Assembly (NCBI GenBank): GCA_002269645.1
Contig: NIVC01001049.1
Location: 1-64,000 of the forward strand
Source of the DNA: Macrostomum lignano
Taxonomy: Eukaryota
DNA length: 64,000 nucleotides
Reading direction: 5' to 3'
Positions 916 to 35,300 of this stretch are shown piece by piece (position 1 is the stretch's first letter; each line of letters begins with the position of its first letter). The notes below the pieces were generated by a model that was not told the DNA's origin, searched no databases, and was given only the letters and a program-made list of their open reading frames with translations. The position numbers and the translations under genes were made by a program.

Positions 916-1400
916 TCATGTCGAGAAGAGAGTTTCAGCGTGACTTGGTGCGTTGTCTGTGGTGGTAACTCTATTGTTTTGCATCACCGCAGAGGTTTCT
1001 TGCAACTGTTGGATGGAGTTGAGCATCGCAAATTGCTCATTGCCAAGCTTAGCTGTCGCTTTCGAGTAGTCGAATTGTAGTGGTATTCCCAGTGACTTAA
1101 AGGTTTCTACTCCTAAGAGCAAATCATAGTCAGCGTCGGGGGTGTCGAGCACAAAGGCCGATATCTTGTGGTTGCGTCCATCGATTTCGAGATCAAAAGT
1201 AGCCTTTTGTTGAGGTTTAGTTGTTGTCCTCCTGCACAAATGGCGTTCATGTTGGTGTCTTGTAATGGTACTCGAAGCTTTTTGGCGAATGCCGGTGAGA
1301 TGCAGGAGATCGAGGCGCCGCTGTCAATGAGGGGGTGCATCTGTGTCGAGTATGCGGTGCGTTGCGGCACCACAGGTTGATCATAGTTGCTGTTGTTAGA
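916..1400 (-). CDS. pro: Retropepsin aspartic protease (split across two frames)
   Basis: PLIDSGASISCIS (DSG at 1317-1325) in ORF 1113..1778 continues after a frameshift as ATFDLEIDG...DYDLLLGVETFKSLGI in ORF 916..1239. Confidence 0.9.
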
Positions 1401-1492
1401 TGCTTCAAAACAAAGGCGTATGAGTAGTTTGCTGCCATTTTGGAACTTTAGGTTCTGGCGGTGGTCTCCGTGGTGGCGGGGTGGCACGAAGT

Positions 1493-4300
1493 TCAATCGT
1501 TTCGATGGGTGCCGAGGGTTGGCGCTTGTCTCGGTGGTATCAGTTGCTGTTGTTGGGAGTAGTCGTTTCGTGATTCCACTCGAGTTGGAGTTCGTTGTTG
1601 CCGCAGCACTTGTATAGTGTGCGTTCTGCCGTACCGGATGGTGCTGGCGACGCAGAGTCGGCCAAGATTGCACACGAAGATAATAACGGCAATGTAGACG
1701 ATTACAGCTGCTGTTAAGACGAACTTTTCTTGATAGTTTGCGACTAGTCGATCCCAGTTGAATATCGACGAAGACCATAGATTGAGAAAGCTAGTTTTGA
1801 GTCCAGGAATGCACTGTCAGCATGTGCTGTTCTATGTCGTGTTCGATTCGGAAGTTTGAAAACCGTAATCAGAAAATCGCGAGTTTGCATGAACTGGTGC
1901 ATTAGGTCGGTCACCGTTATTGGCTACGAAGTGAAGTATAATTGATATCTCCCTAGGTTTGAAGATGCTTTCGGAGACGGAGTTTGCAAATCGGACAACC
2001 GATAGTTTTTCATCGGATCTGACATTAGCGGTTGTGGGTTCAAATCTCGAAAAATTTAGTGTGGTCTTGAATAGCATCGATTGTTTAGGCAGGTAGTAGT
2101 ATGGGAAGGCGTCGCATGAGATTAGAGCTGGAGTAGCTGTGGAGACAATACGAGTCGTTGTGTCCAAAAATCCAAGAACAGTATAATTTTGTAGACGGAA
2201 TTCCAGTGGGGGACGCGTGAAGCATTGGTTCGTCTTGTACTTTGGTTGGACAAAGCGGAACTGGTGTAGAGGTTTGCACTGGTAGACGAAGAGGTATCCA
2301 GCAATGGATCTAGCTCGCAGGAAAGGATCATTTAATAAGAGTCGAGCAGCGAGCGTTGGTTGTGTGTAGTATAACTGTCGGTTGTACTTGAGATTAGTTG
2401 CATACATCATGCATTGAGTAGTTGCAAGCTGTTTCTGTACTTGGAGAAGGTCTTTTCGAGCTTTACTAGCAGCTCCTTGTAGTTGTCCAGCAAGAAGTTC
2501 AGCGGATGCGAACGTTGATGAAAGTTGCGCAGTAGAGTTGCCTGAAGGGGCTGCGATGGTTTTGTCGTCTGTGCTTCGCTTGTTGCGTGGTAGTAGTAGG
2601 AGATCCGGTTGACTGCCTTGTGGTTCGTGATGTGGAACTGCTAGATTCGTGATGAAGCCAGTTGTGGATTGGTTGTTGTCGCTGGTGAGTTCGTGGTGAG
2701 GGTTGAGGTTGCAGACTTTGCTGGTGCACTGGTTGTGCTGCTAGAGGTTGAGGTTGTTGGCGGTAAAGGTGGTGGTACGAGGTTGTGTCGTCACTTTTGT
2801 AGTCGTCGTAGTTGAATCTGCTGTCGTTGTTGCTGCTGAGGTTGTAGCAGTGGTGGTTGTTGAAGTTGTCGGTGTTACGGTTGTGGTAGGTATTGTTGTC
2901 GTTGTAGTCGGTGGCATTGTCGTCGTAGCTGGTGGTGTTGTCGTTGTAGTCGGTGGTGTTGTCGTTGTAGTCGGTGGTGTTGTCGTTGTCAAAATTGTAG
3001 TTGTTGGTGTTGATTTTGTAGTAGTTAGTATCGTAGTTGTTGGCGTCATTGTTGTAGAAGTGCTTGACGTCGGTGGATGATCAGGTCGCTCTTGTCGTAA
3101 AGGTTGCGGCGGTAGGAATTGTCGTGACTGAGTTGTCGTAGTGAAAGGATGTTGAGTCGTCGATTGCTGAACGGGTAATATTGTTGGTGGCGTTGGTAGT
3201 ATCGCTGGTGGTGAACGACGTTTTTGTCTCGAAGAAGTGGTTTCTTCGCTAGTTTGAGGTTTTGGAGTAGCTTCTTCTAATGGGCTTCGTAAGGTGGCGA
3301 GAAATTCTGCTTCTTTGTTGTCGAGGATGTCTACGTATAGACCTTGCGTTGAAAGGTACAACGTCTTACGGACGCCAGTGCAGGTGAGAGTGTGAGTCGA
3401 CGGCACTGGGTTGAAGGTTAGTCCCAATGTTTGATCATTAGTTAAGAACAAGCCGGAGTTTAAGTTGCCTTCAAGAGTACGAAATGGTTTTAAAGGACAA
3501 TCAGCGAGTGGTGGAGGTGTCCAAATAAGATTTAGATGTCTTGGTCCTTTCACGTCAATTTGGTAGATTGCTTCAGTTTCCAAAGGATCCCAGGGGGATG
3601 TTAGTATCGGCAAAGGTAGGTTGAAAGCTCGCATTTCTTGTGCAGTTGTTTTAATTGTACAAAATTTGTCGGCGAGTTTGCAGTTGTCCATTGGGAAGGA
3701 CAAAGATTCCATTTTTTGATCTGCTGTTGAGTAGGCTGGGATTCCGGTGATCACTGTTGTTACTATTTGTTCTGAATGTGAACCAGGAGTGCAACGCACA
3801 GCATTTTGCGTGTTGAATGTCGATTGCAGGCGTTGGATAGACTGAGTTGACGCAGTCTTTAACACTAATGATCCATCAGGCGATAGCTTTGTTCGTGCCC
3901 AGTTTTCACAATCAGCTTGAGTGACTGGTTGCGGTTCCAACTCTACCAGGGCGGATGTCCAGGTTCTTATCACCGCCTTATCACATCTGATAGTGATTTT
4001 CTCGCGGAAACAGACAGTCATAACCAGAGAACTGGTTTCCACGTTCGTTGTGTAAAGTTCCAGTTTCAACGGGAGTGTCGGCGTCGTTTGGTGTTTGAGC
4101 TGTTCACAACGGATCTCATGTGGTATCGTGAAAATTCGTGGGATCTGGTTGTACGGACAGACCATTGGTGTGTCAATGAAGCCCTCGTGAGATTGTCTCT
4201 CAATCGATGGTGGAGTTGACGTCGTTATCGGCGTAGCGTTGGCTAGTGCGAAGAGTGAAGTTGCTAGGCACAGGAGAAAAAGTGTCAGTAGTGATCGGCG
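1493..4300 (-). CDS. env: Envelope-like glycoprotein, class III (herpesvirus gB / chuvirus G-like), with frameshifts
   Basis: Signal peptide LLTLFLLCLATSLFALANA (~4236-4300); Cys-containing ectodomain; furin-type RQKRR (~3215-3229); Thr-rich linker; then AGQLQ...TQC...QPTLAARLLLNDPFLRARSIAGYLFVYQC and CFTRPPLEF...GFLD...C, resembling gB domain III/IV motifs; TM FVLTAAVIVYIAVIIFVC (~1668-1723); cytoplasmic tail ending at TGA 1493. Confidence 0.78.
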
Positions 4301-6205
4301 AATTCCGACGGAAGCTTTCACGGTTTTCTCGCGGTTGTTGTTGCTGGTCGGTGGAGTGTAGGCGTTTGTCACTCTTTCAACCGTACAAAGGCGAATAGAG
4401 TTGATAGTCGCAGCGGCAGTAGTCGGTTTTTTGAGTAAAGATTTCAGCTGCTTAGCGTCTCCAGAGTAGCGAATTTCGTTTCCAAAAGTCGGTGGGCGTT
4501 CATCAACTGTAGCAATGTGCATCAGTTGGGCAGACTCGGGAGCGTCGTGAGTCGTCCATCCAATCTGCGGCTGTTGATTCCATCCTGGGTGGGACGTTTC
4601 AGGGTCCTGAGCAGTGATGGCGCGTATCGGTGGATATTGTTGTTGCGCAAATCTCGGAGGTTGTCGTTGATTGTTGGTGCCGTTGTATCGAGGCGGATAG
4701 CGTTGCTGAGGCCGGTTTCCATAGTCTTGACGGGGTGGAAATCGTGATTGTTGTGTCGCCGGTGGACCGTAGCCTTGTGTACGTTGGGCTCGTAGTCGGC
4801 ACTGGTTAATAGAGTGTCCTGGTTTTCGGCAATAGTTACAGGTCAATCGTGGCGGTCCCTGCTGGTAACGATTTCGCGGGGCATCAGAGCCGTATTGGGC
4901 TGTGTTCCTTCGATCACTTGAGTTAGGTCGGAAGGGACGAGGTTGTTGGTCATTCCTTCGACGACAGTCGGCGGCATAGTGTCCAGGTCGACCGCAATGA
5001 TAACAAGTGGGCTTCTGTTGCATATTAGCGATAGGTGGCTTGGTTTGTGTTTGCAGGGAGGCAACCACCTGCTGATTGGCTTCCTTCGTCGTTTTTTCTA
5101 AGGTAGTTAGACGCTCTGTGAGAGCTTTCAAGTCAGTGCCATCAGAGTCCATGGTGGAGTCGCGGATTTGTTCGGCGCGGATGGCCTTGTTGATTAGCGT
5201 ACTTTCCGTGGTGATATTTTGCTTCAAGAGTTCTCGTTTGATGTAGGGTAGAGCATTGTTGATAGTCGTAGCCATCAGGGTAGCAAGGAAGTCTCGGTTG
5301 CGCTGGTCGATGACAGCTTGGTTCGCGGGTGGTGTTTCCGGACCGGCACCTTCCGGAAATTCTTCCGGTATTTCCGGCATAGCTGACCTGAGCTTTCGAC
5401 GAATATCGGTGAAATAAGACAGGAACGGTTCGCCGTACTGTTGTTTCCGGGTTGTTGCATTATGCAGCGTTAGAGCCGAGCCAATGGTTACTTCCCGAAG
5501 GCGTTGAGACAGTGCCTCAATGGTGGCTGGATAAGAGGCTTGGACTGCGGCAGAGAGGCGACTGTATTCGAGTTTAAGAAGGTCATTCAGTAGTCGCGGG
5601 AAGAGCCGAATCTTTGCGTTCTCCGATAGTCCAAAGGAGCGTGTGATCAAGTCGAACTCTTCAGTGAAGGAGCGGAAGTCATGCATTTGGTCGATTCCTT
5701 TCAGGGATTGACGAATTTCAGCAAGAGCAGTAGCTGAGACGGGATGGTTTGATTGCAATTGCAGACTGCGGTTCATAACGTCAGTAAGTTCACGGACAGC
5801 ATTTGTCGCTGCAGCATCAACATGGGGAGCGCCGTCCTGATCAGCCATATCTAGAGTAGATTCTTCAGCAATATCGTTTGGGGCTGGTTGAACTGTTTCG
5901 TCCGCGTCTGTTAGGATGGAGCTGGGTGCTGGTGAGTGTGCACGGTTGTGTTCAAAATGATCCGCGAGAGGGTTATTAAACTCAACGTTATTTGGTATAA
6001 ACAGGTTAGGTACTGGTGAACTATTTCGTGGGAGCTGTTCACCTATTTGGCAGTCAGAAGTTTCTAAATTTTGTTCAGGGGGTCTGTTAATATTTGAGCT
6101 TTGAAAAACTGGTCCGGAACGTAAATCTCGGACAGGTGTGGTCATTAACAAGAATTCAATCAATAATTTCAAGGCAACGATAGCACAAAATGTAACTAAT
6201 AGCAA
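2741..6205 (-). CDS. gag: Gag-Env N-terminal polyprotein ORF (1154 aa; likely start MTTPVRDLRSG at ~6145)
   Basis: Retrotransposon capsid-like segment (FRSFTEEFDLIT...KQQYGEPFLSYFTDIRR); knuckles CYHCGRPGHYAADC (~4964-5005) and CNYCRKPGHSINQC (~4799-4840); no stop codon before the env signal peptide. Confidence 0.9.
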   Translation of the reverse strand: MLLVTFCAIVALKLLIEFLLMTTPVRDLRSGPVFQSSNINRPPEQNLETSDCQIGEQLPRNSSPVPNLFIPNNVEFNNPLADHFEHNRAHSPAPSSILTDADETVQPAPNDIAEESTLDMADQDGAPHVDAAATNAVRELTDVMNRSLQLQSNHPVSATALAEIRQSLKGIDQMHDFRSFTEEFDLITRSFGLSENAKIRLFPRLLNDLLKLEYSRLSAAVQASYPATIEALSQRLREVTIGSALTLHNATTRKQQYGEPFLSYFTDIRRKLRSAMPEIPEEFPEGAGPETPPANQAVIDQRNRDFLATLMATTINNALPYIKRELLKQNITTESTLINKAIRAEQIRDSTMDSDGTDLKALTERLTTLEKTTKEANQQVVASLQTQTKPPIANMQQKPTCYHCGRPGHYAADCRRRNDQQPRPFRPNSSDRRNTAQYGSDAPRNRYQQGPPRLTCNYCRKPGHSINQCRLRAQRTQGYGPPATQQSRFPPRQDYGNRPQQRYPPRYNGTNNQRQPPRFAQQQYPPIRAITAQDPETSHPGWNQQPQIGWTTHDAPESAQLMHIATVDERPPTFGNEIRYSGDAKQLKSLLKKPTTAAATINSIRLCTVERVTNAYTPPTSNNNREKTVKASVGIRRSLLTLFLLCLATSLFALANATPITTSTPPSIERQSHEGFIDTPMVCPYNQIPRIFTIPHEIRCEQLKHQTTPTLPLKLELYTTNVETSSLVMTVCFREKITIRCDKAVIRTWTSALVELEPQPVTQADCENWARTKLSPDGSLVLKTASTQSIQRLQSTFNTQNAVRCTPGSHSEQIVTTVITGIPAYSTADQKMESLSFPMDNCKLADKFCTIKTTAQEMRAFNLPLPILTSPWDPLETEAIYQIDVKGPRHLNLIWTPPPLADCPLKPFRTLEGNLNSGLFLTNDQTLGLTFNPVPSTHTLTCTGVRKTLYLSTQGLYVDILDNKEAEFLATLRSPLEEATPKPQTSEETTSSRQKRRSPPAILPTPPTILPVQQSTTQHPFTTTTQSRQFLPPQPLRQERPDHPPTSSTSTTMTPTTTILTTTKSTPTTTILTTTTPPTTTTTPPTTTTTPPATTTMPPTTTTTIPTTTVTPTTSTTTTATTSAATTTADSTTTTTKVTTQPRTTTFTANNLNL

Positions 6206-7180: not shown

Positions 7181-7988
7181 TCACTCAGGGCGACCACCGT
7201 ATGCGGAGGCGAGAAGTTTGGGGCAAGGAGAGTCGCTAACGTCAAAACAGGGGTCGTCGGTAAAGTCGGGGTGGCCAACTATATGTTCCCGGTGGAACCG
7301 AGGGAGGGTGAGGAAATGAGCTTCAATGGCCTGACCTCTAGAACTGCCGCGATGGCGCGTCCAGGTCGACCAGAAGTGGTAGCGGAGTTGGTAAGAGGCA
7401 AGGTGGAACAGGCTTAAGGGTGAGTCGGAAACGGGGGGAACAAAGCTCTGGAGCAATAGTTCGTGGCGTTCACACTCCTCGTCATCAATTTTGCGACAGT
7501 ATATTCGGCGGAGATCTTTGTAGCGAAGAGGAACGCCGGTATGAAAATCAACGCAACGCAGAGCGCGGAAGAGTAGCTCGAAGTCCTGGCCTCGGAGGGC
7601 TATATCGACGATTGCGGACTTAAAAGCTCCTTGCAGGGGCGGCAGATGGAGGCCTTCGAGATGGAATAGCATATTGTCTATCTGCCCCGGGATGTGGCAT
7701 TGGTAGCAGTCGGAAATGTGGGTCAGGTAGGAATCAGTAATGGTGAGGACAAACTTGGTTACGGGACCAGGGCGTCCATTACAACTGAAGAGATCGTGAA
7801 ACAGGGATCCGGGATTGCGGGCTTGACGGTACGAGGAAACGGAAAGGGCGAGAGATAGGAGGGGTGATAGTAAATGAAACTGCGGCGATGTTGGCAATAA
7901 TACGTCTGACACTGGCAATCAAATAGTGGGACATCATCGGGGCAGTAAGGGATGCGGCTTCAGCGTAGATACGTGCGAAAGTAGTCAT
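7181..7988 (-). CDS. Accessory ORF of unknown function in the retroelement leader (probably frameshifted; ATG at 7988)
   Basis: ORF 7779..7988 (ATG) overlaps ORF 7181..7918. Non-repetitive, globular-looking sequence with CYQCH and further Cys/His. Confidence 0.45.
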
Positions 7989-8667: not shown

Positions 8668-10491
8668 TGGAAGGGGCTAACCGACTGAAGGTAGGGGTAA
8701 TCTTGAGTTTAATTTTTTGTAATTTTGTATAGTTTTTGTAGATATTCTAACAACAATTGAATTACTTATTAGTGTACATATATTTATATTGTTATTGTTG
8801 CGATTACCCTTTTGCACGTGTGAATGTTTTTGTAAAAAAATACATAACTAACCTGTTTAACTATTTGAATTGATAAAGGCTGTTTCAGGTTAGAGGGGGG
8901 GGGCTATGGGTAGGGCTCAATCTTGACAAAGCAAAGGATGGATAGCGTAACAAGATGGTTAACAAAATAAGTAGGGCAAAAGCTGTATGGGGCACTAAGC
9001 ATCTATTGCCTTTGGCAATAGGGAGATGAGAGAAAAGTAGAAGTTGTTTGGATCTTAATCCATCATACAAAAACGAGAAATGGCTAGGAAAAGAAAAAAT
9101 TCCTGGGGAAATTGTTTATCAGAGATCGTGAAAAGGTCGCTGAACCGGAGGGTGAGTGGCAGGATGGAGCTGGCCTGGACAGTTTGATTAAGGAAAAGAT
9201 TTTTTGTGGGAGATAAAGTTGAGTGATGGTTTTAATCAAGAAAAGAGGTCGCTCTGGGAGGTCGAGTAGGCACACAAAGTCTGATGTGGGCAGTTTGTTT
9301 AAGATTAATATTTATTGGAGGGAACTGGAGTTGATTAAACACGCAAGAAATTCCCAGCATCCCGAATGATCCATAGAAGGCAACTGCCAGAATCAGCAAT
9401 CCGAAAAAAAAACTTGGGTCGATAAGGATTTGATGGATGGGGCTCGTGGGGTTTGCAAACAGTGAGTTTGGAGTGTTTAATCAAGAAAAATAATGAAAGG
9501 CTAGGCAAGCGGTCTACGAAAATCAGAAAAGTTTTCCGGATGAAGCACGCAGGTTCGGCAAACAATTGGTTGGGACTTTAATCAAGGAAAATGATGAATG
9601 GTCAGGCAAGCAGCCTGTCGGATAAGCGAAAAAAAATTTTTTTTTGTTGACAGCAAGAAATTGGTGGCTCCAGAGTTTGATTAATATTTGCTGAAGTGAC
9701 TTTGTTTGAATAGCTCGTCAGGTTTTTTGCGTTTTCGTTCTTTTTTCGGGCGCTTAACGGCGCAGAGAATCTGAGATAAGCCAGTTTTCTAGATGTGGCC
9801 ACACACTGGGAAAAACCGAGGAGGAAACGAATGGCTCAGTCACTTTGGAGAGTTTCAAGTTTACTTGAGGAAATCCAGAGTAGACTTTGCTATTCTATGG
9901 AAAAGCAGTGAAGAAAGAAGCGTCCAACATTAAATAAACTTGAACAATTGATGATGCCGCGGTCTTTGAAAAATCGAAGCTTGGAAGCTTGAACAATTGA
10001 GGATCCGAATAACTGAATTGAATTTCTGCATTGAAGCTCTGAGGCTTGAGAATAAGAACTCGATATCAGACGTTCGACGACGTTTCTTGAATTAGAGTGA
10101 AATTGAAATTGTTCCGGAACGATAATTTATTGACTTTCATGGATCCTTTGAATCTGAAAAAACTTGAATCAGGTCTCAGTGCACTGGACAAAACTTAGAA
10201 CCGATTTGAATTCTGAATTTGAATTTGAGGGCTCGTGATTTACGATTCATTCTTCGAATATGTATTACTGACAGTCTCGAATGCTCAAAGGGGAGGGGGG
10301 GGGGAAGCCAGTCCAACCGTTCACACCCATCAGCCACGCCTGTAGCTGTCTACCCCATGCAGGGCATAGCGGCTATTGTGGTGAAAAGCATCGGAGGAAA
10401 AGTACGGTCAGGGAACCAGTGAAATATTTTAAAATATATGTTATTGTTCTTCTTCTGGTCTCTCACTTCTATGGCTCTTGTTCTACTTCAA

Positions 10492-10509
10492 ATATCAATG
10501 TGAGAGCCA
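10492..10509 (-). promoter_or_regulatory. Primer binding site TGGCTCTCACATTGATAT
   Basis: Begins with TGG directly after the LTR end GTTATT; a nearly identical motif occurs at 63663-63680. Confidence 0.7.
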
Positions 10510-11073
10510 AATAACTGAGGCGGCGGATTCAACTGACTTTTCCTGATGATGCAAACACTTGATGGTAACTTACAGACCGTTGTATTTGATGGTCACAATC
10601 TCGAGATGTTTTCTCACAAAATATAATGTCTAAGGTGGAATTCCAAATAAGAAGCTCGTTCGATTTAAGTCACAAGGTGTTTCTAGTTGTTCGGGTGAAC
10701 CGAAGGTTCAGTCTATTGTGAAACGTGGATTGGGTGTTGGTTTGGCTTTAGTAAGTCGACTTATAAGTTTTGGTGTTTGGGTTGAGACCCTAACTGTGTC
10801 AATCAAAATAGTCAAACGAGGTAAGCTAGGAGAATGGCGAAGGAGAGGCAAGGGCGCGGAGAGGCGGAGCGAGCAGAAAAAAGGCGAGCTTCTTGCTTGG
10901 TTAACATGAGCTTTTATAGTACTTTTCAGTCTTGATCGCATTGGATGGTACATAACTGCTTTTCATTGGTTGAGGTTGGGGTCGTGTCCTCAGCTTTTGC
11001 TATTTGGAGCGCATTCATTGGTTAAAATACATTCAATCTGGATGGGAGCTTTCTAGAGCCAAAATGTATCACT
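10510..11073 (-). repeat. 5' LTR (~560 bp)
   Basis: AGTGA...ATT termini like errantivirus LTRs; two CCAAT boxes (~10965, ~11017) and TATAAAA (~10914-10920) on the minus strand; bounded by the PBS and by host exon sequence. Confidence 0.75.
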
Positions 11074-11535
11074 TCACATCCACCTGCGGTTGGGGAGTGC
11101 TTGGCATTGCAGCATGACTGTGTACACATCCACCTGCGGTTGGGGAGTGCTTGGCATTGCAGCATGATTGTGTACACATCCACCTGCGGTTGGGGAGTGC
11201 TTGGAATTGCAGCATGACTGTGCCAGATATGGAGCTGATTGTGCCAGATATGGAGCTGATTGTGCCAGATATGGAGCTGATTGTGCCAGATATGGAGCTG
11301 ATTGTGCCAGATATGGAGCTGATTGTGCCAGATATGGAGCTGATTGTGCCAGATATGGAGCTGATTGTGCCAGATATGGAGCTGATTGTGCCAGATATGG
11401 AGCTGACTGTGCCAGATATGGAGCTGACTGTGCCAGATATGGAGCTGACTGTGCCAGATATGGAGCTGACTGTGCCAGATATGGAGCTGACTGTGCCAGA
11501 TATGGAGCTGACTGTGCCAGATATGGAGCTGATTT
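11074..11535. repeat. 50-bp acceptor-containing repeat x3 followed by a 19-bp minisatellite (TGTGCCAGATATGGAGCTGA-like)
   Basis: Direct tandem periodicity visible. Confidence 0.9.
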
Positions 11536-14500
11536 GTACAAGAAAATCAGTCCCGGATCAAGGGTAAGCACCCCAAACAATTCCAACACAAACGAATCCG
11601 CAGGCGCCCCGATGAGTCATAGCTGAGTCAGCACCCAAAATAACTCAAACACAAATCCGCAGGCGCCCCCATGAGTCATAGCAGGGTCAGCACCCAAAGC
11701 AACTCCAGCACAAATCCGCAGGCGCCCCCCATGAGTCATAGCAGGGTCAGCACCCAAAACAACTACAGCACAAATCCGCAGGCGCCCCGATGAGTCATAG
11801 CTGGGTCAGCACCCAAAATAACTCAAACACAAATCCGCAGGCGCCCCCATGAGTCATAGCAGGGTCAGCACCCCAAACAACTCCAGCACAAATCCGCAGG
11901 CGCCCCGATGAGTCATAGCTGGGTCAGCACCCAAAATAACTCAAACACAAATCCGCAGGCGCACCGATGAGTCATAGCTGGGTCAGCACCCCAAATAACT
12001 CAAACACAAAGCCGCAGGCGCACCGATGAGTCATAGCTGCCGGTGAACAGCTCGGGCGGCATGTGGATCGGGGTGCCCACGATGCTGCCGCTCATCATGG
12101 CGTGCGGCTTGCAGAAGCCGAGGTCCGTCAGCTTGGCGCGGCTGCGCCTGTCCAGCAGCACGTTCTTCAGCTTGACGTCTCGGTGCACCAGGCCGCGGCT
12201 GTGCAGGAACCGGATGCCCTCCACCACGTCGCAGGCCACCTGCAGTCTGGAGGGGGAGGTGTGCGATGGCTGAGGATGGGATCATGATGGATCAGGGTGG
12301 GATCAGGGTGGTATCAGGGTGGTATCAGGGTGGGATCAGGGTGGGTAGCTGAGGATGGGATCAGAGTGAGATCAGGATGGGATCGGGGTGGCATTAGGGT
12401 GGGATTAGGATGGGATCAGGATGGGATCAGGGTGAGAGGCTGAGGATATGAACAAGGTGGGAGGCTGAATATGGGATCAGGGTGGTATCAGGATGGGATC
12501 AGGATGGGATCAGGATGGGATCAGGATGGGAGGCAAGCAGGCAGTATTGGCAATCGCGGGGACATGCGGGGCGGCAATCAACAGGTGCGGCACGGGCTGT
12601 CGGTGGCACTGCGGTGTCACCTGGCAGCGAAGCTGAGCGAGCCGAACTGAATGGCGCGGTGCAGGTCGCAGCCCATCAGCTCCGAGATGATGAGAATCTC
12701 CGGCGAGGCTGCGGCTGAGGCGCCGAGCACGCAGATCTCGGAGTCGGTGAGGCCGCCGTCGCCGCCGCCGACCCCGCCGCCGCCATAGGCATAGTTGGTG
12801 ACGACGCCCAGCACTGGGACGATGCGCTCGTGAGGCGGCAGCTGCCTGCGCAAATGCGAGGCACTGATTAGCAACTGGCGGCCTCCACTGGCTGAGTGAC
12901 TGGGTCAGACGTTCGTTTCTTAGAAAGACTTAATCTGTCTTAATTGCATATTTGTGCTAGCAGAAAGGTTAGTTTAAAGGTTTTATATCTCTGCAGTTAA
13001 TATCAAGCGTAAATAGAGCCTTCAAATATTTTCTAAGAAACATAAATTGAGCCTTCAAATATTTTTTAAGAAACGTAAATTGAACTGGCAAATATTTTCT
13101 AAGAAACGTTAATTCAGCCTTGAAATATTTTCTAAGAAACGTAAATTCAGCCTTGAAATATTTTCAAAGAAACGTAAATTCAGCCTTGAAATATTTTCTA
13201 AGAAACGTAAATTCAGCCTTGAAATATTTTCTAAGAAACTTAAATTGAGTTTTCAAGTATTTTTTTAGAAACGAAGCGTCTCGGCCCCTCAACCTCAGCC
13301 GCAACCAAACGAAACAGCCGCATCAAAGCAAGCAATTTATTTATTGCTCCCGAGGATTTTCCCATTTAAACCCCGTTACTCGCTACTGATATTGCCAGCC
13401 AATCAGTAGGCTGGTTGGGACATGCAAATCTGTCCGGCTCGGGGCCGCCACCTGTCAGTCCAGGCCAGGCCCCGGCCCAGGGCCACGTGCAGGTCGCGGG
13501 GCAGGCGGGCCATCGCCAGCAGCACCGCCGGCTCCGCCAGCCGCCTGTCGATGGCGCAGCCGAGGATGCGCGCGACTCTGGCGTGCTCAGGCAGCTGCCT
13601 TGGGGTGGCCGGGCGGCGTGTCGGGGACGAAGGGGATCATAAATTGTGCGATGGGGCGCGGAATCTGACTTCTTGGGGCATTCATCCGCATTTAGCACAA
13701 AATGACAATTCTACTGCGAGAAAAGAATGAAATAAATAATTATGATAATTCACGGTTACCCCGGCTGTGTAGCGGATAATCTGGAACACTACTATATGAA
13801 ATACTGTATAGACTGCAGTCACATGAGGTCACACAGAGTCACAAGAGCTCACAAAAAGTCACCGAAGCTCACACAAAGCCACATAAGCTAACATAGAGTC
13901 ACAGAAGCTCACACAGAGTCACACGAGCTCACTGGGTGTAATAGAACTCCAATGCCAGGTCATTCCAGTGCTTGTCATCCGGAGGCACCACCGACTTGAT
14001 GGCCACGGGGCTGCGGCCGCCCCAGGAGTCGCAGCTGTACACAATGCCGTACTGGCCGCGCCCGATCTCGCGGGAGAACTGCGGCATGCCTGAGGGGAAG
14101 AAGGGGTTCGATTTCGGCATGTGTTACTAAGGCCCAGCTCACCATAGAGTCATGTCCCAGCTCACCATAGAGTCATGTCCCAGCTCACCATAGAGAGTCA
14201 TGTCCCAGCTCACCATAGAGAGTCATGTCCCAGCTCACCATAGAGAGTCATGTCCCAGCTCACCATAGAGAGTCATGTCCCAGCTCACCATAGAGAGTCA
14301 TGTCCCAGCTCACCATAGAGAGTCATGTCCCAGCTCACCATAGAGAGTCATGTCCCAGTTCACCATAGAGTCATGTCCCAGCTCACCATAGAGAGTCATG
14401 TCCCAGCTCACCATAGAGAGTCATGTCTCAGCTCACCATAGAGAGTCATGTCCCGGACAGAGGCGGACTCCAGCGCCAGGCGGGCGATGCGGGGCGCGTG

Positions 14501-19119: not shown

Positions 19120-20110
19120 CAAGGGGTGTCCAAAAAGTAGTCATACTTTTAACCATAGCTCTCATTCTATAGCTTCCTGTGATTCAAAATTTTTTGAACT
19201 GATAGCAGCAAATCTCTTCTACAGACTGCTTTTGGAATTTTTAAAATTGATACCAGATTACAAAAGTTATACCTATAAAAGTAATAGTACTTGTTAACTC
19301 TACACAAATTATAGGCTAAGCTCTACAAGGTCCATGCCAAGTAAGCTTCGATGAATTGTTGATTTCAGCTTGTCCAACCTGTCAGCAATCTCTCAACTCT
19401 CTAATGGTCATTTGGGAGTCCTTGTCAAGAAGATCCAGAATAGTCCGCCAGTACATCAGGTTGATGAACATATGGCCATCCTGTCTGATGCTGATCTGCC
19501 AAGTCAGTCCTTCCCTCACTAAACTGTTCCATCCATTGATAAACTGTCATTTTGCTGACTGCAGAGGATCTGTGAGCAGAGCAAGGTTTTGCATAAATTT
19601 CTGAGGCACTATGGCTAATGTCCCAAAGAGTGAAGATAGTACTTTGCTGAGCAATAACTGAGTGCACATCCATGTGTGTTGTTGAGTATAGGCAATGAAA
19701 TCATGAACAATGGCAAAATGCAAGCTCCTCTGTTTGCAAATAAAGTAATGAATTTAATGCTTTATTTTTCTGCGCATGATCCCATCCATAGACAAATTTC
19801 ACTTAGTCACAATGAGCATCATTTTGTAATAGGGCCTTGGTATTACTTAAATAAGACATTTATCAATGCCTTCTTAATGAATGAGTACAGAACTCGACTA
19901 TTATAAATTTTGATATAGTTTTTGTAACTCTATGGTATAGATGCTGTTACTTTTGTGGGTATAACTTTTGTTCTCTAGTATTAATTTTTTAAATTCAAAA
20001 AGTAGTCCTTTAGAAGATTTTCCGCTATCAGTTCATAAAATTTTAAATCACATGAAGCTATAGAATGAGAGCTATGGTTAAAAGTATCACTACTTTTTGG
20101 ACACCTCTCA
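19120..20110 (-). mobile_element. Internally deleted mariner (Tc1/mariner) element with ~190-bp TIRs
   Basis: Inverted repeats starting CAAGGGGTGTCCAAAAAGTAG / ending CTACTTTTTGGACACCTCTCA, flanked by TA. Relic transposase HTH in ORF 19425..19673 (VSKMTVYQWMEQFSEGRTDLADQHQTGWP). Confidence 0.88.
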
Positions 20111-32369: not shown

Positions 32370-35300
32370 ACTGTCAGCCAGCAGCAAAGACGGCAGTTCA
32401 ATGTGCATGAGCACACTGCCATGAGCCTGCTCAGGAAGAATGGGATTCTGGTGCCCGACTTTGAGCTGGCCAGCTCTGCTGATGAGGTCTACGCATTTGC
32501 TAGAGAGCTCGGTGAGCTGGGCTGCGATGCATTGAATCAGATCGCTACCAACCTCCCCCCCCCCAACTCACTGGGACCACCACCCCAAACTCACTGGGAC
32601 CGCCACCCCAAACTCACTGGGACCGCCACCCCAAACTCACTGGGATCGCCACCCCAAACTCACTGGGACCGCCACCCCAAACTCACTGGGACCGCCACCC
32701 CAAACTCACTGGGACCGCCACCCCAAACTCACTGGGACCGCCACCCCAAACTCACTGGGACCGCCACCCCAAACTCACTGGGACCGCCACCCCAAACTCA
32801 CTGGGACCGCCACCCCAAACTCACTGGGACCGCCACCCCAAACTCACTGGGACCGCCACCCCGCGTACTCCGTCAGAGCGGCGCACCGGCAGGCCGCAGG
32901 TGATGCTGAAGGCGCAGGTGCTGGCAGGCGGGCGGTCCCGCGGCGAGTGGAGCAGCGGCCTGGCCGGCGGCGGCGTCCGTCTGGCGGCTGGGGCGGATGA
33001 AGCGCGGCTGCTGGCGCAGGGGATGCTGGGCCACCGGCTGCGCACCCGGCAGACGGGTCCGGAGGGCCGGCCCTGCCACCGCCTGCTTGTGGTGAAGCCG
33101 GCCAAGCCGGTGCGCGAGTTCTACCTGGCGGTTGCCATGGATACGGGGGGCAGCGGCGGCCCGATCCTTATGGCCGCTCGGCTCGGCGGCACCGGCATCG
33201 AGGAGGCGGCGTCCAGCGTGGTGGCCCGGCCGCTGGGCCCGGAGGCGGCGCTGTCCGGGGCGGGCGCGGCCGAGGTGGCGGAGCGGGTGCTGGGGCTGGC
33301 CGGCCGGGAGGCGGAGTCCGCGGCGCGATTCGCTCAGCAGCTCTGCAGGATGTTCAGCGCTTCTGACGCCACGCTGCTGGAGGTGAACCCGGCGGCTGTG
33401 GACTCGCACGGCCAGGGTGAGTCTCCGTTTGCATTGCCCGCTGCTGACTGCTGTTAGTAGCAGCGCTGGAGTTTTGTTCTTGTGGATTTCATCACGATAA
33501 GTCGTTGACTTACCGCATTCATTATTAGCGGTCGATGGGAGATTTTTGAGACATTGTTCCCGCTGCGTGGGGATTAAGTATATCGTAGATAGGAGCTCAT
33601 AACCATAGGATCTCTACTATGGAATGTATCTATTTATGGGACAAATCTCCTATAGAATAAATCTCCCTAAAGAATCAATCTCCCCATAGGATAAATCTCC
33701 TTATATGATAAATCTCCCCTATGCAATAAATCTCCCCATGAGATAAATCTCCTCATAGGATAAATTTCCCCTTAGGATAAATCTCCCCATACGATAAATC
33801 TCCCATAGGATAAATCTCCCCATACATGTAGGATAAATCTCAACATAGAATAATCTCCCCATAGGATAAATCTCCCAAGGGATAAATCTCCTATAGGAAA
33901 AATCTCCCTATGCAATAAATCTCCCCTAGATAATTTCCCCACTCCAAACCCGCAGTGCTGTGCCTGGACTGCAAGCTCAACGTGGACTCGAACGCGCGCT
34001 TCCGCCAGCCGGAGCTCTGCAGCGCCCGCGACTGGGCCCAGGAGGACCCGCGCGACGCTACGGCGGCCGGCTGCGGCCTGAAGTACGTCGGCATGGATGG
34101 CGACATCGGCTGCCTGGTGAACGGCGCGGGCCTGGCCATGGCCACCATGGACATCGTCAAGCTGCACGGCGGCGAGCCCGCCAACTTCCTTGACGTCGGC
34201 GGCACCGTCACGGCCAAGCAGGTGGCGCAGGCGCTGGACATCATCGGCTCGGACGGCCGCGTCACCGCCGCGCTGGTGAACATCTTCGGCGGCATCGTCC
34301 GCTGCGACGTCGTGGCGGAGGGCCTCGTCTCCGCGCTGCAGCGCCTTCGGCCTGGCCTGCCCGTGGTGGTCCGGCTGCAGGGCAACCGCGGCAGCGAGGC
34401 CAGGCAGCTGCTGCGCAGGGAGAGCGGCGCCGCCGTCAGCGTCTGCGAGTGCCTGGACGAGGCGGCCAGGATGGTAAGGACTGCGGAGTCCTTGGCGCTG
34501 GCTTCCTTGGGAGGGTTTGCTCTTGGTCATACTGTGCTCATGGTCATTGTGTGCTCATGGTTGTTGTGTGCTCATGGTAATGCTGTGCTCATGGTCACGC
34601 TGTGCTCATGGTCATTGTGTGCTCATGGTCATGCTGTGCTCATTGTCATTGTGTGCTCATGGTCATGCTGTGCTCATGGTCATTGTGTGCTCATGGTCAT
34701 GCTGTGCTCATTGTCATTGTGTGCTCATGGTTATGCTGTGCTCATGGTCATACTGTGCTTATGGTTATGCTGTGCTCATGGTCATGCTGTGCTCATGGTC
34801 ATGCTGTGCTCATGGTCATGCTGTGCTCATAGTCATGCTGTGCTCATGGTCATTGTGTGCTCATGGTCATGCTGTGCTCATGGTTGTTGTGTTCTCATGG
34901 TTGTTGTGTTCTCATGGTCATGCTGTGCTCATGGTCATGCTGTGCTCATGGTCATGCTGTGCTCATAGTCATGCTGTGCTCATGGTCATTGTGTGCTCAT
35001 GGTCATGCTGTGCTCATGGTCATGCTGTGCTCATGGTCATGCTGTGCTCATGATCATGCTGTGCTCATGGTCATGCTGTGCTCATGGTCATGCTCATGGT
35101 CATGCTGTGCTCATGATCATGCTGTGCTCATGGTCATGCTGTGCTCATGGTCATGCTGTGCTCATGATCATGCTGTGCTCATGGTTATGCTGTGCTCATA
35201 TACATGATCTGATGTCTTTATAAATCCCCTATATAAACACAGCAACCCGAAGGTCAAGCAGTGCGCTTTCTCCTGAGCAGCCAGAAGGAGTTTCGTACAG

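Follow-up and report, generated by a model that had tools for sequence, protein, structure and literature searches.

The window analysed here, 64,000 nucleotides of Macrostomum lignano contig NIVC01001049.1 (assembly GCA_002269645.1, positions 1 to 64,000), carries on its minus strand approximately the 5′ two-thirds (positions 1 to ~11,076) of a Ty3/gypsy long terminal repeat (LTR) element in which an envelope gene (env) lies between gag and the protease gene (pro). This rare gag-env-pro-pol architecture is genuine; we regard it as virtually certain. It is probable that the element is a young, multicopy, Metaviridae-like member of the Ty3/gypsy group, that its functional class III envelope of the glycoprotein B (gB) type sits inside a single frame of ~2,800 codons, running gag-env-pro-reverse transcriptase (RT)-RNase H (RH)-integrase (IN), and that this frame yields one polyprotein threaded through a membrane.

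A stop-free frame of 1157 codons (6214-2741; like all window features of the element, on the minus strand), with a methionine at 6145, runs from a capsid-like region into a threonine-rich tract. This bears out an earlier reading made from the sequence only, which had described an uninterrupted open reading frame (ORF) passing from a capsid and two zinc knuckles into a signal peptide and a glycoprotein ectodomain. The gag N-terminus and capsid-like helical region (5156-6145) were assigned by position and by likeness to the gag regions of sister families; no Pfam capsid match was obtained in the window's family, and related polyproteins match Retrotrans_gag. The nucleocapsid (4799-5005) contains two CCHC zinc knuckles (5005-4964 and 4840-4799; Pfam zf-CCHC, E 6.6e-8), and is followed by a Gag-Env linker (4304-4798) bearing the candidate protease sites IRAI (4627-4616) and INSI (4405-4394). 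A predicted internal signal (4235-4303), recognised by hydropathy and charge, comprises basic residues, a hydrophobic core and an A-N-A end. It precedes the cysteine-rich N-terminal half of the Env ectodomain (3230-4234), which corresponds, by gB analogy, to domains I, II and part of IV. The threonine-rich, mucin-like tract (2576-3229) lies between the furin motifs RQKRR (3229-3215) and RNKR (2587-2576). The C-terminal half of the ectodomain (1724-2575; frame broken in the window) contains a long central helix (2506-2366), a beta domain and a C-terminal arm; a transmembrane (TM) helix (1661-1723; hydropathy 2.3) and a proline-rich cytosolic tail (1400-1660) follow. Only then comes the aspartic protease (1030-1399; Pfam gag-asp_proteas, with LIDSGAS at 1331-1311; frame broken in the window), and after it a linker and RT up to YLDD (17-6), where RT reaches the window edge (1-1029). 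The placement of env upstream of the protease was thus read correctly from the window, and the same order is kept in sister families.

The continuity of the frame was examined in other copies. Genome matches to window positions 3200-6200 include 22 of 37 that are near full length, at 94-100% identity (window included), with 20 at 98% or more. For 17 of the 22, whole or partial, we asked whether two landmarks lie in one natural stop-to-stop frame. The second knuckle and the first ectodomain cysteine do so in 13 of 16 copies, and the initial methionine and the same cysteine in 8 of 12. The TM helix, tail and protease share a frame in five of nine copies, and the protease and YLDD in three of ten; RT, RH and IN stand together in two natural frames. 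The final integrase interval was scored by a loose motif and is left out of the argument. No interval is broken in all copies, each is open in at least two, and the broken copies vary from one interval to the next. A programmed stop or shift ought to recur from copy to copy, so the breaks are specific to individual copies or to the assembly; in particular, no stop between gag and the signal is common to the copies.

The window's own copy is broken in eight landmark intervals, from the threonine-rich tract to YLDD, which is more than the 'few' single-nucleotide shifts noticed at first. Compared with the window over 6 x 3 kb, six near-identical copies show five one-base indels and two substitutions, an indel-heavy pattern that resembles long-read error, and the breaks in the window are probably assembly errors. 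In the broken region, short-read contigs of four runs (four studies) carry small indels relative to the window at no fewer than ten places, at least nine of them in all four runs.

The error-prone state of the window, with its eight broken intervals, lends some colour to the idea that the gene order is an artefact, either a viral glycoprotein gene nested in one copy or an assembly chimera. Such an origin is scarcely credible. The junction is common to 22 copies, the order is common to six families and to public proteins, gag, env and pol show comparable synonymous divergence (dS), and short-read contig depth covers 30 of 30 bins in each of the four runs. The copies, together with the open frames and shared order of the sister families, refute it, and the shared order and similar dS leave no sign of a nested env insertion.

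The same layout recurs well beyond this family. With the C-terminal half of Env as query, 144 genome matches were obtained (164 candidates), including open frames of 2,458-2,866 codons in other families. In all four sister loci that were read, a single frame carries gag, a signal of basic and then hydrophobic residues, the ectodomain, one furin motif, the TM helix and the protease, and three of these frames extend into RT; in six families of this genome, as in public proteins, env holds this middle position. P0003, a Macrostomum lignano protein by its source name, runs from gag through integrase in one chain of 2,852 residues and conserves the TM helix. Among 35 public env matches, 20 of them scanned with Pfam, P0026, P0028 and P0035 each combine knuckle, env and protease in a single chain; these matches also include the G protein of San Jacinto virus, which we take to be a nyamivirus. 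P0039 and P0040, 59-61% alike in RT-RH, likewise place env before protease. In a quick RT tree (124 rows, mostly unnamed, with no outgroup) all eight rows with env upstream share one branch (SH-aLRT 97); long branches meet there and the tree search was quick, and we therefore do not claim a single origin for such elements.

Some relatives depart from this plan. A sister family at locus L033 (5510-1485, minus strand) has the same gag-env-pro frame without a CCHC knuckle, and bears an RGG-rich stretch instead. In P0087, a public protein of 2,006 residues, RT precedes a gB-type env domain, a pol-env fusion of the opposite order. In P0014, also public, an env fragment is joined by a dUTPase-like domain and by a helicase of the AAA_11 (Upf1-like) type; such a helicase is reportedly described for the NERV elements discussed below. 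P0009 and P0039 are env-bearing retroelement proteins labelled as coming from bacterial metagenome-assembled genomes, and are probably misbinned animal contigs.

The envelope is predicted, from profile and model comparisons, to be a class III (gB-type) fusogen. A profile built from 13 env sequences gave 25 matches, 24 of which are herpesvirus gB chains (best E 2e-15). An AlphaFold2 model of the ectodomain, taken from a natural copy with a 30-row alignment, has predicted local distance difference test (pLDDT) values mostly of 80-97 in the folded halves and below 50 in the threonine-rich tract. It matches herpes simplex virus 1 (HSV-1) gB with a Foldseek E of 1.3e-13 and a Z score of 12.7 over 420 residues; isolated gB domain IV gives Z 11.7 at 3.9 Å root-mean-square deviation (rmsd) (Z scores come from a second comparison made on Foldseek's own matches). 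The model of a sister-family env gives E 1e-21 to Epstein-Barr virus gB, with a nyavirus glycoprotein ranked first among viral models. These modelled structures support the gB-like class III fold first suggested from motifs. A word-index search with the env alignment returned no matches, and an Atlas feature search with env gave only leads below 0.9.

Env is also under selection. The ratio of nonsynonymous to synonymous divergence (dN/dS), computed between the two sub-lineages of the family, is 0.09-0.10 in the first half of the ectodomain, 0.20 in the second half and 0.10 in the TM helix and tail, compared with 0.21 in gag and 0.05-0.06 in pol. As these env values are low, and as dS (0.10-0.30) is similar across gag, env and pol, env has been under purifying selection and has travelled with gag and pol. 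Conservation of env need not mean entry into cells, since pol depends on reading through env; the layout makes env hard to lose. A single polyprotein might accordingly carry an Env that is no longer infectious, and which instead anchors Gag and Pol on endoplasmic reticulum (ER) membranes for intracellular assembly, or aids passage from cell to cell, with no free enveloped particle. We think this improbable, given that the whole ectodomain, its cysteines and the furin motif at the gB position are all kept, and that dN/dS in the lumenal half falls as low as 0.09, which is more constraint than an anchor needs.

The likeliest mechanism, and in our judgement a probable one, is that the polyprotein is threaded once through the ER membrane and cut by signal peptidase, furin and its own protease. 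The genomic RNA would be translated as one chain, with Gag remaining cytosolic. The internal signal, with its basic N-terminal side, would open translocation and then be cut by signal peptidase; the ectodomain would fold in the ER lumen, and the TM helix would stop transfer, so that the protease and Pol would remain attached, on the cytosolic side, to the tail of Env. Cleavage by the element's own protease would detach capsid and nucleocapsid from what is left of the signal and release Pol from the Env tail, and furin would cut on both sides of the threonine-rich tract, priming the trimer. All three products, Gag, Env and Pol, would in this way begin on a shared membrane in 1:1:1 proportion, with Pol packaged through Env and not by a Gag-Pol frameshift.

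The hydropathy and charge of the chain are consistent with this topology of internal signal and stop-transfer helix, which the sequence-only reading had also proposed. By the positive-inside rule, positive charge is expected before the core of a signal that leaves Gag cytosolic, and in 10 of 11 polyproteins the residues preceding the hydrophobic core do carry a net positive charge. The suggestion that IRAI and INSI are cleavage sites of the element's protease gains modest support from motif enrichment across the same 11 polyproteins: the 2,429 linker residues contain 10 instances of [VIL][NR][ASTHV][IVL], where shuffling predicts 1.6, and the 3,300 lumenal residues contain one. The motif was chosen after the sequences had been seen, so the enrichment is a lead only. 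No zero-frame slippery heptamer common to the families was detected between nucleocapsid and signal; one of five families has one there.

Several observations weigh against translation as a single threaded chain with a gB-type Env. The longest open frame among the window-family copies examined is 2,086 codons and none is open end to end; the weakest interval, RH to IN, lies in one frame in only two of eight copies, on a loose landmark. PF24664, a fusion glycoprotein family, matches the second ectodomain half weakly in the window (E 5e-4, below the curated cut-off); the ectodomain sequence alone has as its sole match human cytomegalovirus gB, also weak (E 0.09), and superposition of the whole ectodomain on HSV-1 gB has an rmsd of 10.1 Å. 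A fixed 1:1:1 ratio fits poorly with the excess of Gag that retroelements usually make, and a subgenomic RNA may therefore exist. Finally, in 4 of 11 polyproteins the signal is preceded, at a distance of 12-25 residues, by a methionine from which Env could be started separately.

The last two points favour an alternative in which the frame is continuous in the DNA and the proteins are made for the most part from distinct RNAs: excess free Gag would come from a spliced or truncated RNA, which would solve the stoichiometry problem, and Env, or Env-Pro-Pol, from a spliced RNA or an internal start. Precedents are the spliced gag RNA of copia and the spliced env RNA of insect gypsy. We judge this fairly unlikely. 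In 5 of the 11 polyproteins, including that of the window's family, the nearest methionine is at least 80 residues away; the junction frame stays open across families only 21-58% alike in env; and the linker is enriched in protease-like motifs, on the post hoc count given above, as if it were translated and cut. No RNA run containing the element was listed, the run types being guesses. No joints were seen in the coding region in short-read contigs from the four runs; such contigs drop rare forms and are uninformative on splicing.

The window's family carries three features of its own. The threonine-rich tract, of ~240 residues, is at the position of the gB furin loop; a similar tract is present in P0003, and it is absent from all four sister loci. 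Its dN/dS is 0.29. ORF0 (P0158), a cysteine/histidine-rich accessory ORF between the 5′ LTR and gag (7181-7988), is split over two frames in the window; it encodes ~270 amino acids in other copies, its block is missing in three of nine copies compared, and it has no Pfam or PDB match. ORF3 (P0157; L016:3876-4973, plus strand, outside the window) is a phenylalanine/leucine-rich orphan of ~365 codons that follows pol, in the position usual for env; searches of Pfam, PDB and Atlas features gave no match for it. With dN/dS of 0.28-0.47 (ORF0) and 0.23-0.56 (ORF3), both appear to be under weaker purifying selection, and among the matches listed their genome matches fall solely within the window's family. 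A more ambitious proposal, which we put forward tentatively and hold to be rather doubtful, is that these elements use an assembly route not known to be demonstrated in any reverse-transcribing virus (one threaded chain, a fixed 1:1:1 ratio and Pol carried via the Env tail). To this the window's family would add a mucin-like shield, whose excision between two furin sites arms the fusogen, and a pair of fast-evolving orphan proteins with a possible role against host silencing.

The ends of the element and its pol order are those of Ty3/gypsy elements. The first reading of the window set the retroelement at 1113-6205; the element itself is larger, extending to the 5′ LTR and ORF0 on one side and to RH, IN, ORF3 and the 3′ LTR on the other. 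The 5′ LTR (10420-11076; 657 nt, TG...CA) matches both ends of other copies, and beyond the window edge those copies continue with RH, IN, ORF3 and then a 3′ LTR. The full element spans ~16.9 kb, as measured in a copy with both LTRs. LTR pairs in other copies have identities of 99.8% and 98.6%, and target duplications of 4 bp were found in both of the copies in which the two flanks are readable; insertion was therefore recent. One base past the LTR is a 14-nt primer binding site (10405-10418) starting with TGG, which we take to be that of tRNA-Glu. No tRNA genes were found within the 64-kb window. The Pfam families of pol are ordered gag-asp_proteas, RVT_1, RT_RNaseH_2, Integrase_H2C2 and rve, that is, protease-RT-RH-IN as in gypsy, and no BEL-specific Pfam families are listed for it. 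TG...CA LTRs, a TGG-starting primer binding site, a short target duplication and gypsy-type pol order are each features of Ty3/gypsy (Metaviridae) elements. Between protease and RT (660-1030) lie ~120 residues that are conserved in P0003 and have no Pfam match; they resemble a decayed dUTPase-like beta domain.

Elsewhere in the genome, two copies (L019:1-2846 and L020:4287-7129) lie head to tail and share an LTR, forming either a tandem LTR-body-LTR-body-LTR array or an assembly duplication. In the window, the 5′ LTR adjoins a 50-nt minisatellite, and a protein kinase exon (12000-12281, minus strand; Pkinase, E 4e-16) is found 900 bases past the LTR; an intron of the protein kinase gene is a possible location for the element. 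The remainder (11075-63644) is dense in minisatellites, including a 24-nt unit repeated 175 times at 36827-41021, with host exons between them, one stretch near 34000 being what we assume to be succinyl-CoA ligase beta-like. Long inverted repeats at 45649-45991 (156-nt arms, 96%) and 19122-20108 (94-nt arms, 93%) are possibly small DNA transposons.

The lineage is not undescribed, as had been supposed from the sequence: gypsy elements of GAG-ENV-POL order with a gB-type env are published. In the available text of their 2026 paper (PMC13524379), Chary and Hayashi find only an HSV/gB-type env in the errantiviruses that they describe from Nematoda, Bryozoa and Platyhelminthes, with GAG-ENV-POL order in several clades, and elements of this order are not monophyletic; its supplement lists nine flatworm and ten bryozoan elements, and the nematode ENV/POL flip is credited there to Sacco et al. 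2022. The expression and use of a lone gB-type fusogen in non-insect env-bearing gypsy elements are stated to be unknown (PMC13524379). The window's element shares with those GAG-ENV-POL errantiviruses a Ty3/gypsy pol, an env between gag and pol with a gB-fold ectodomain between signal and TM helix, LTR flanks and multiple, highly similar copies. In its main text, however, PMC13524379 describes three ORFs, and the available part does not use 'polyprotein', 'single ORF', 'fused' or 'frameshift'. Its one Macrostomum element has an LTR of ~860 nt, a length of ~10.6 kb and another primer binding site, compared with 657 nt, ~16.9 kb and two extra ORFs here; the window's family is therefore not that element. 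Thus the gene order is already published, flatworms included, and would by itself be no surprise to a specialist, whereas a single frame with a membrane-threaded polyprotein was not found stated in the available text of PMC13524379. A literature search for single-ORF gag-env-pol retrotransposons, Macrostomum LTR envelopes and signal-peptidase processing, with most subscription journals outside its reach, returned nothing relevant, and no paper describing NERVs beyond PMC13524379.

An Env in mid-frame predicts that no Pol is made without passing Env, that env is hard to lose, and that any excess of Gag needs a route other than frameshifting. With at least six such families in one genome, several with open frames, Macrostomum lignano is a good place for native RNA and protein work on these predictions.

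A separate env ORF, taken as normal in the sequence-only reading, is likewise not universal: the belpaovirus Atlas has a single Gag-Pol-Env polyprotein with Env last (PMC9094657, available text). Env-bearing belpaoviruses such as Atlas and Anakin share with the present element a single polyprotein of ~2,800 residues that includes Env, but in the available texts they differ in having a BEL/Pao RT, three knuckles, a class II fusogen, Env last and no cytosolic enzymes after the TM helix (PMC9094657; preprint 10.64898/2026.03.22.711591). In the window's element Env precedes the protease and there are two knuckles, unlike in Belpaoviridae. With herpesvirus gB and the G proteins of nyamiviruses and chuviruses, the predicted Env shares its fold, a long central helix and a furin motif just before that helix; identity is only 8-18%, and the element differs in its internal signal and in the ~240-residue tract between two furin motifs. 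The structural polyproteins of alphaviruses and flaviviruses place capsid first, followed by an internal signal, a lumenal glycoprotein and a stop-transfer segment, with enzymes back in the cytosol in the flavivirus order; they have no homology to the window's element and the analogy is functional only. A parallel in layout is offered by the nematode endogenous retroviruses (NERVs) of Sacco and colleagues, in which gag-env-pro-pol reportedly forms one continuous ORF and which reportedly also have a nyamivirus-like glycoprotein together with accessory ORFs. Such a continuous ORF is present in the sister families, and the window's family is open interval by interval. The element works like a NERV and is not classed as one; NERVs are elements of nematodes, whereas its nearest named relatives are proteins of the flatworm Macrostomum lignano.

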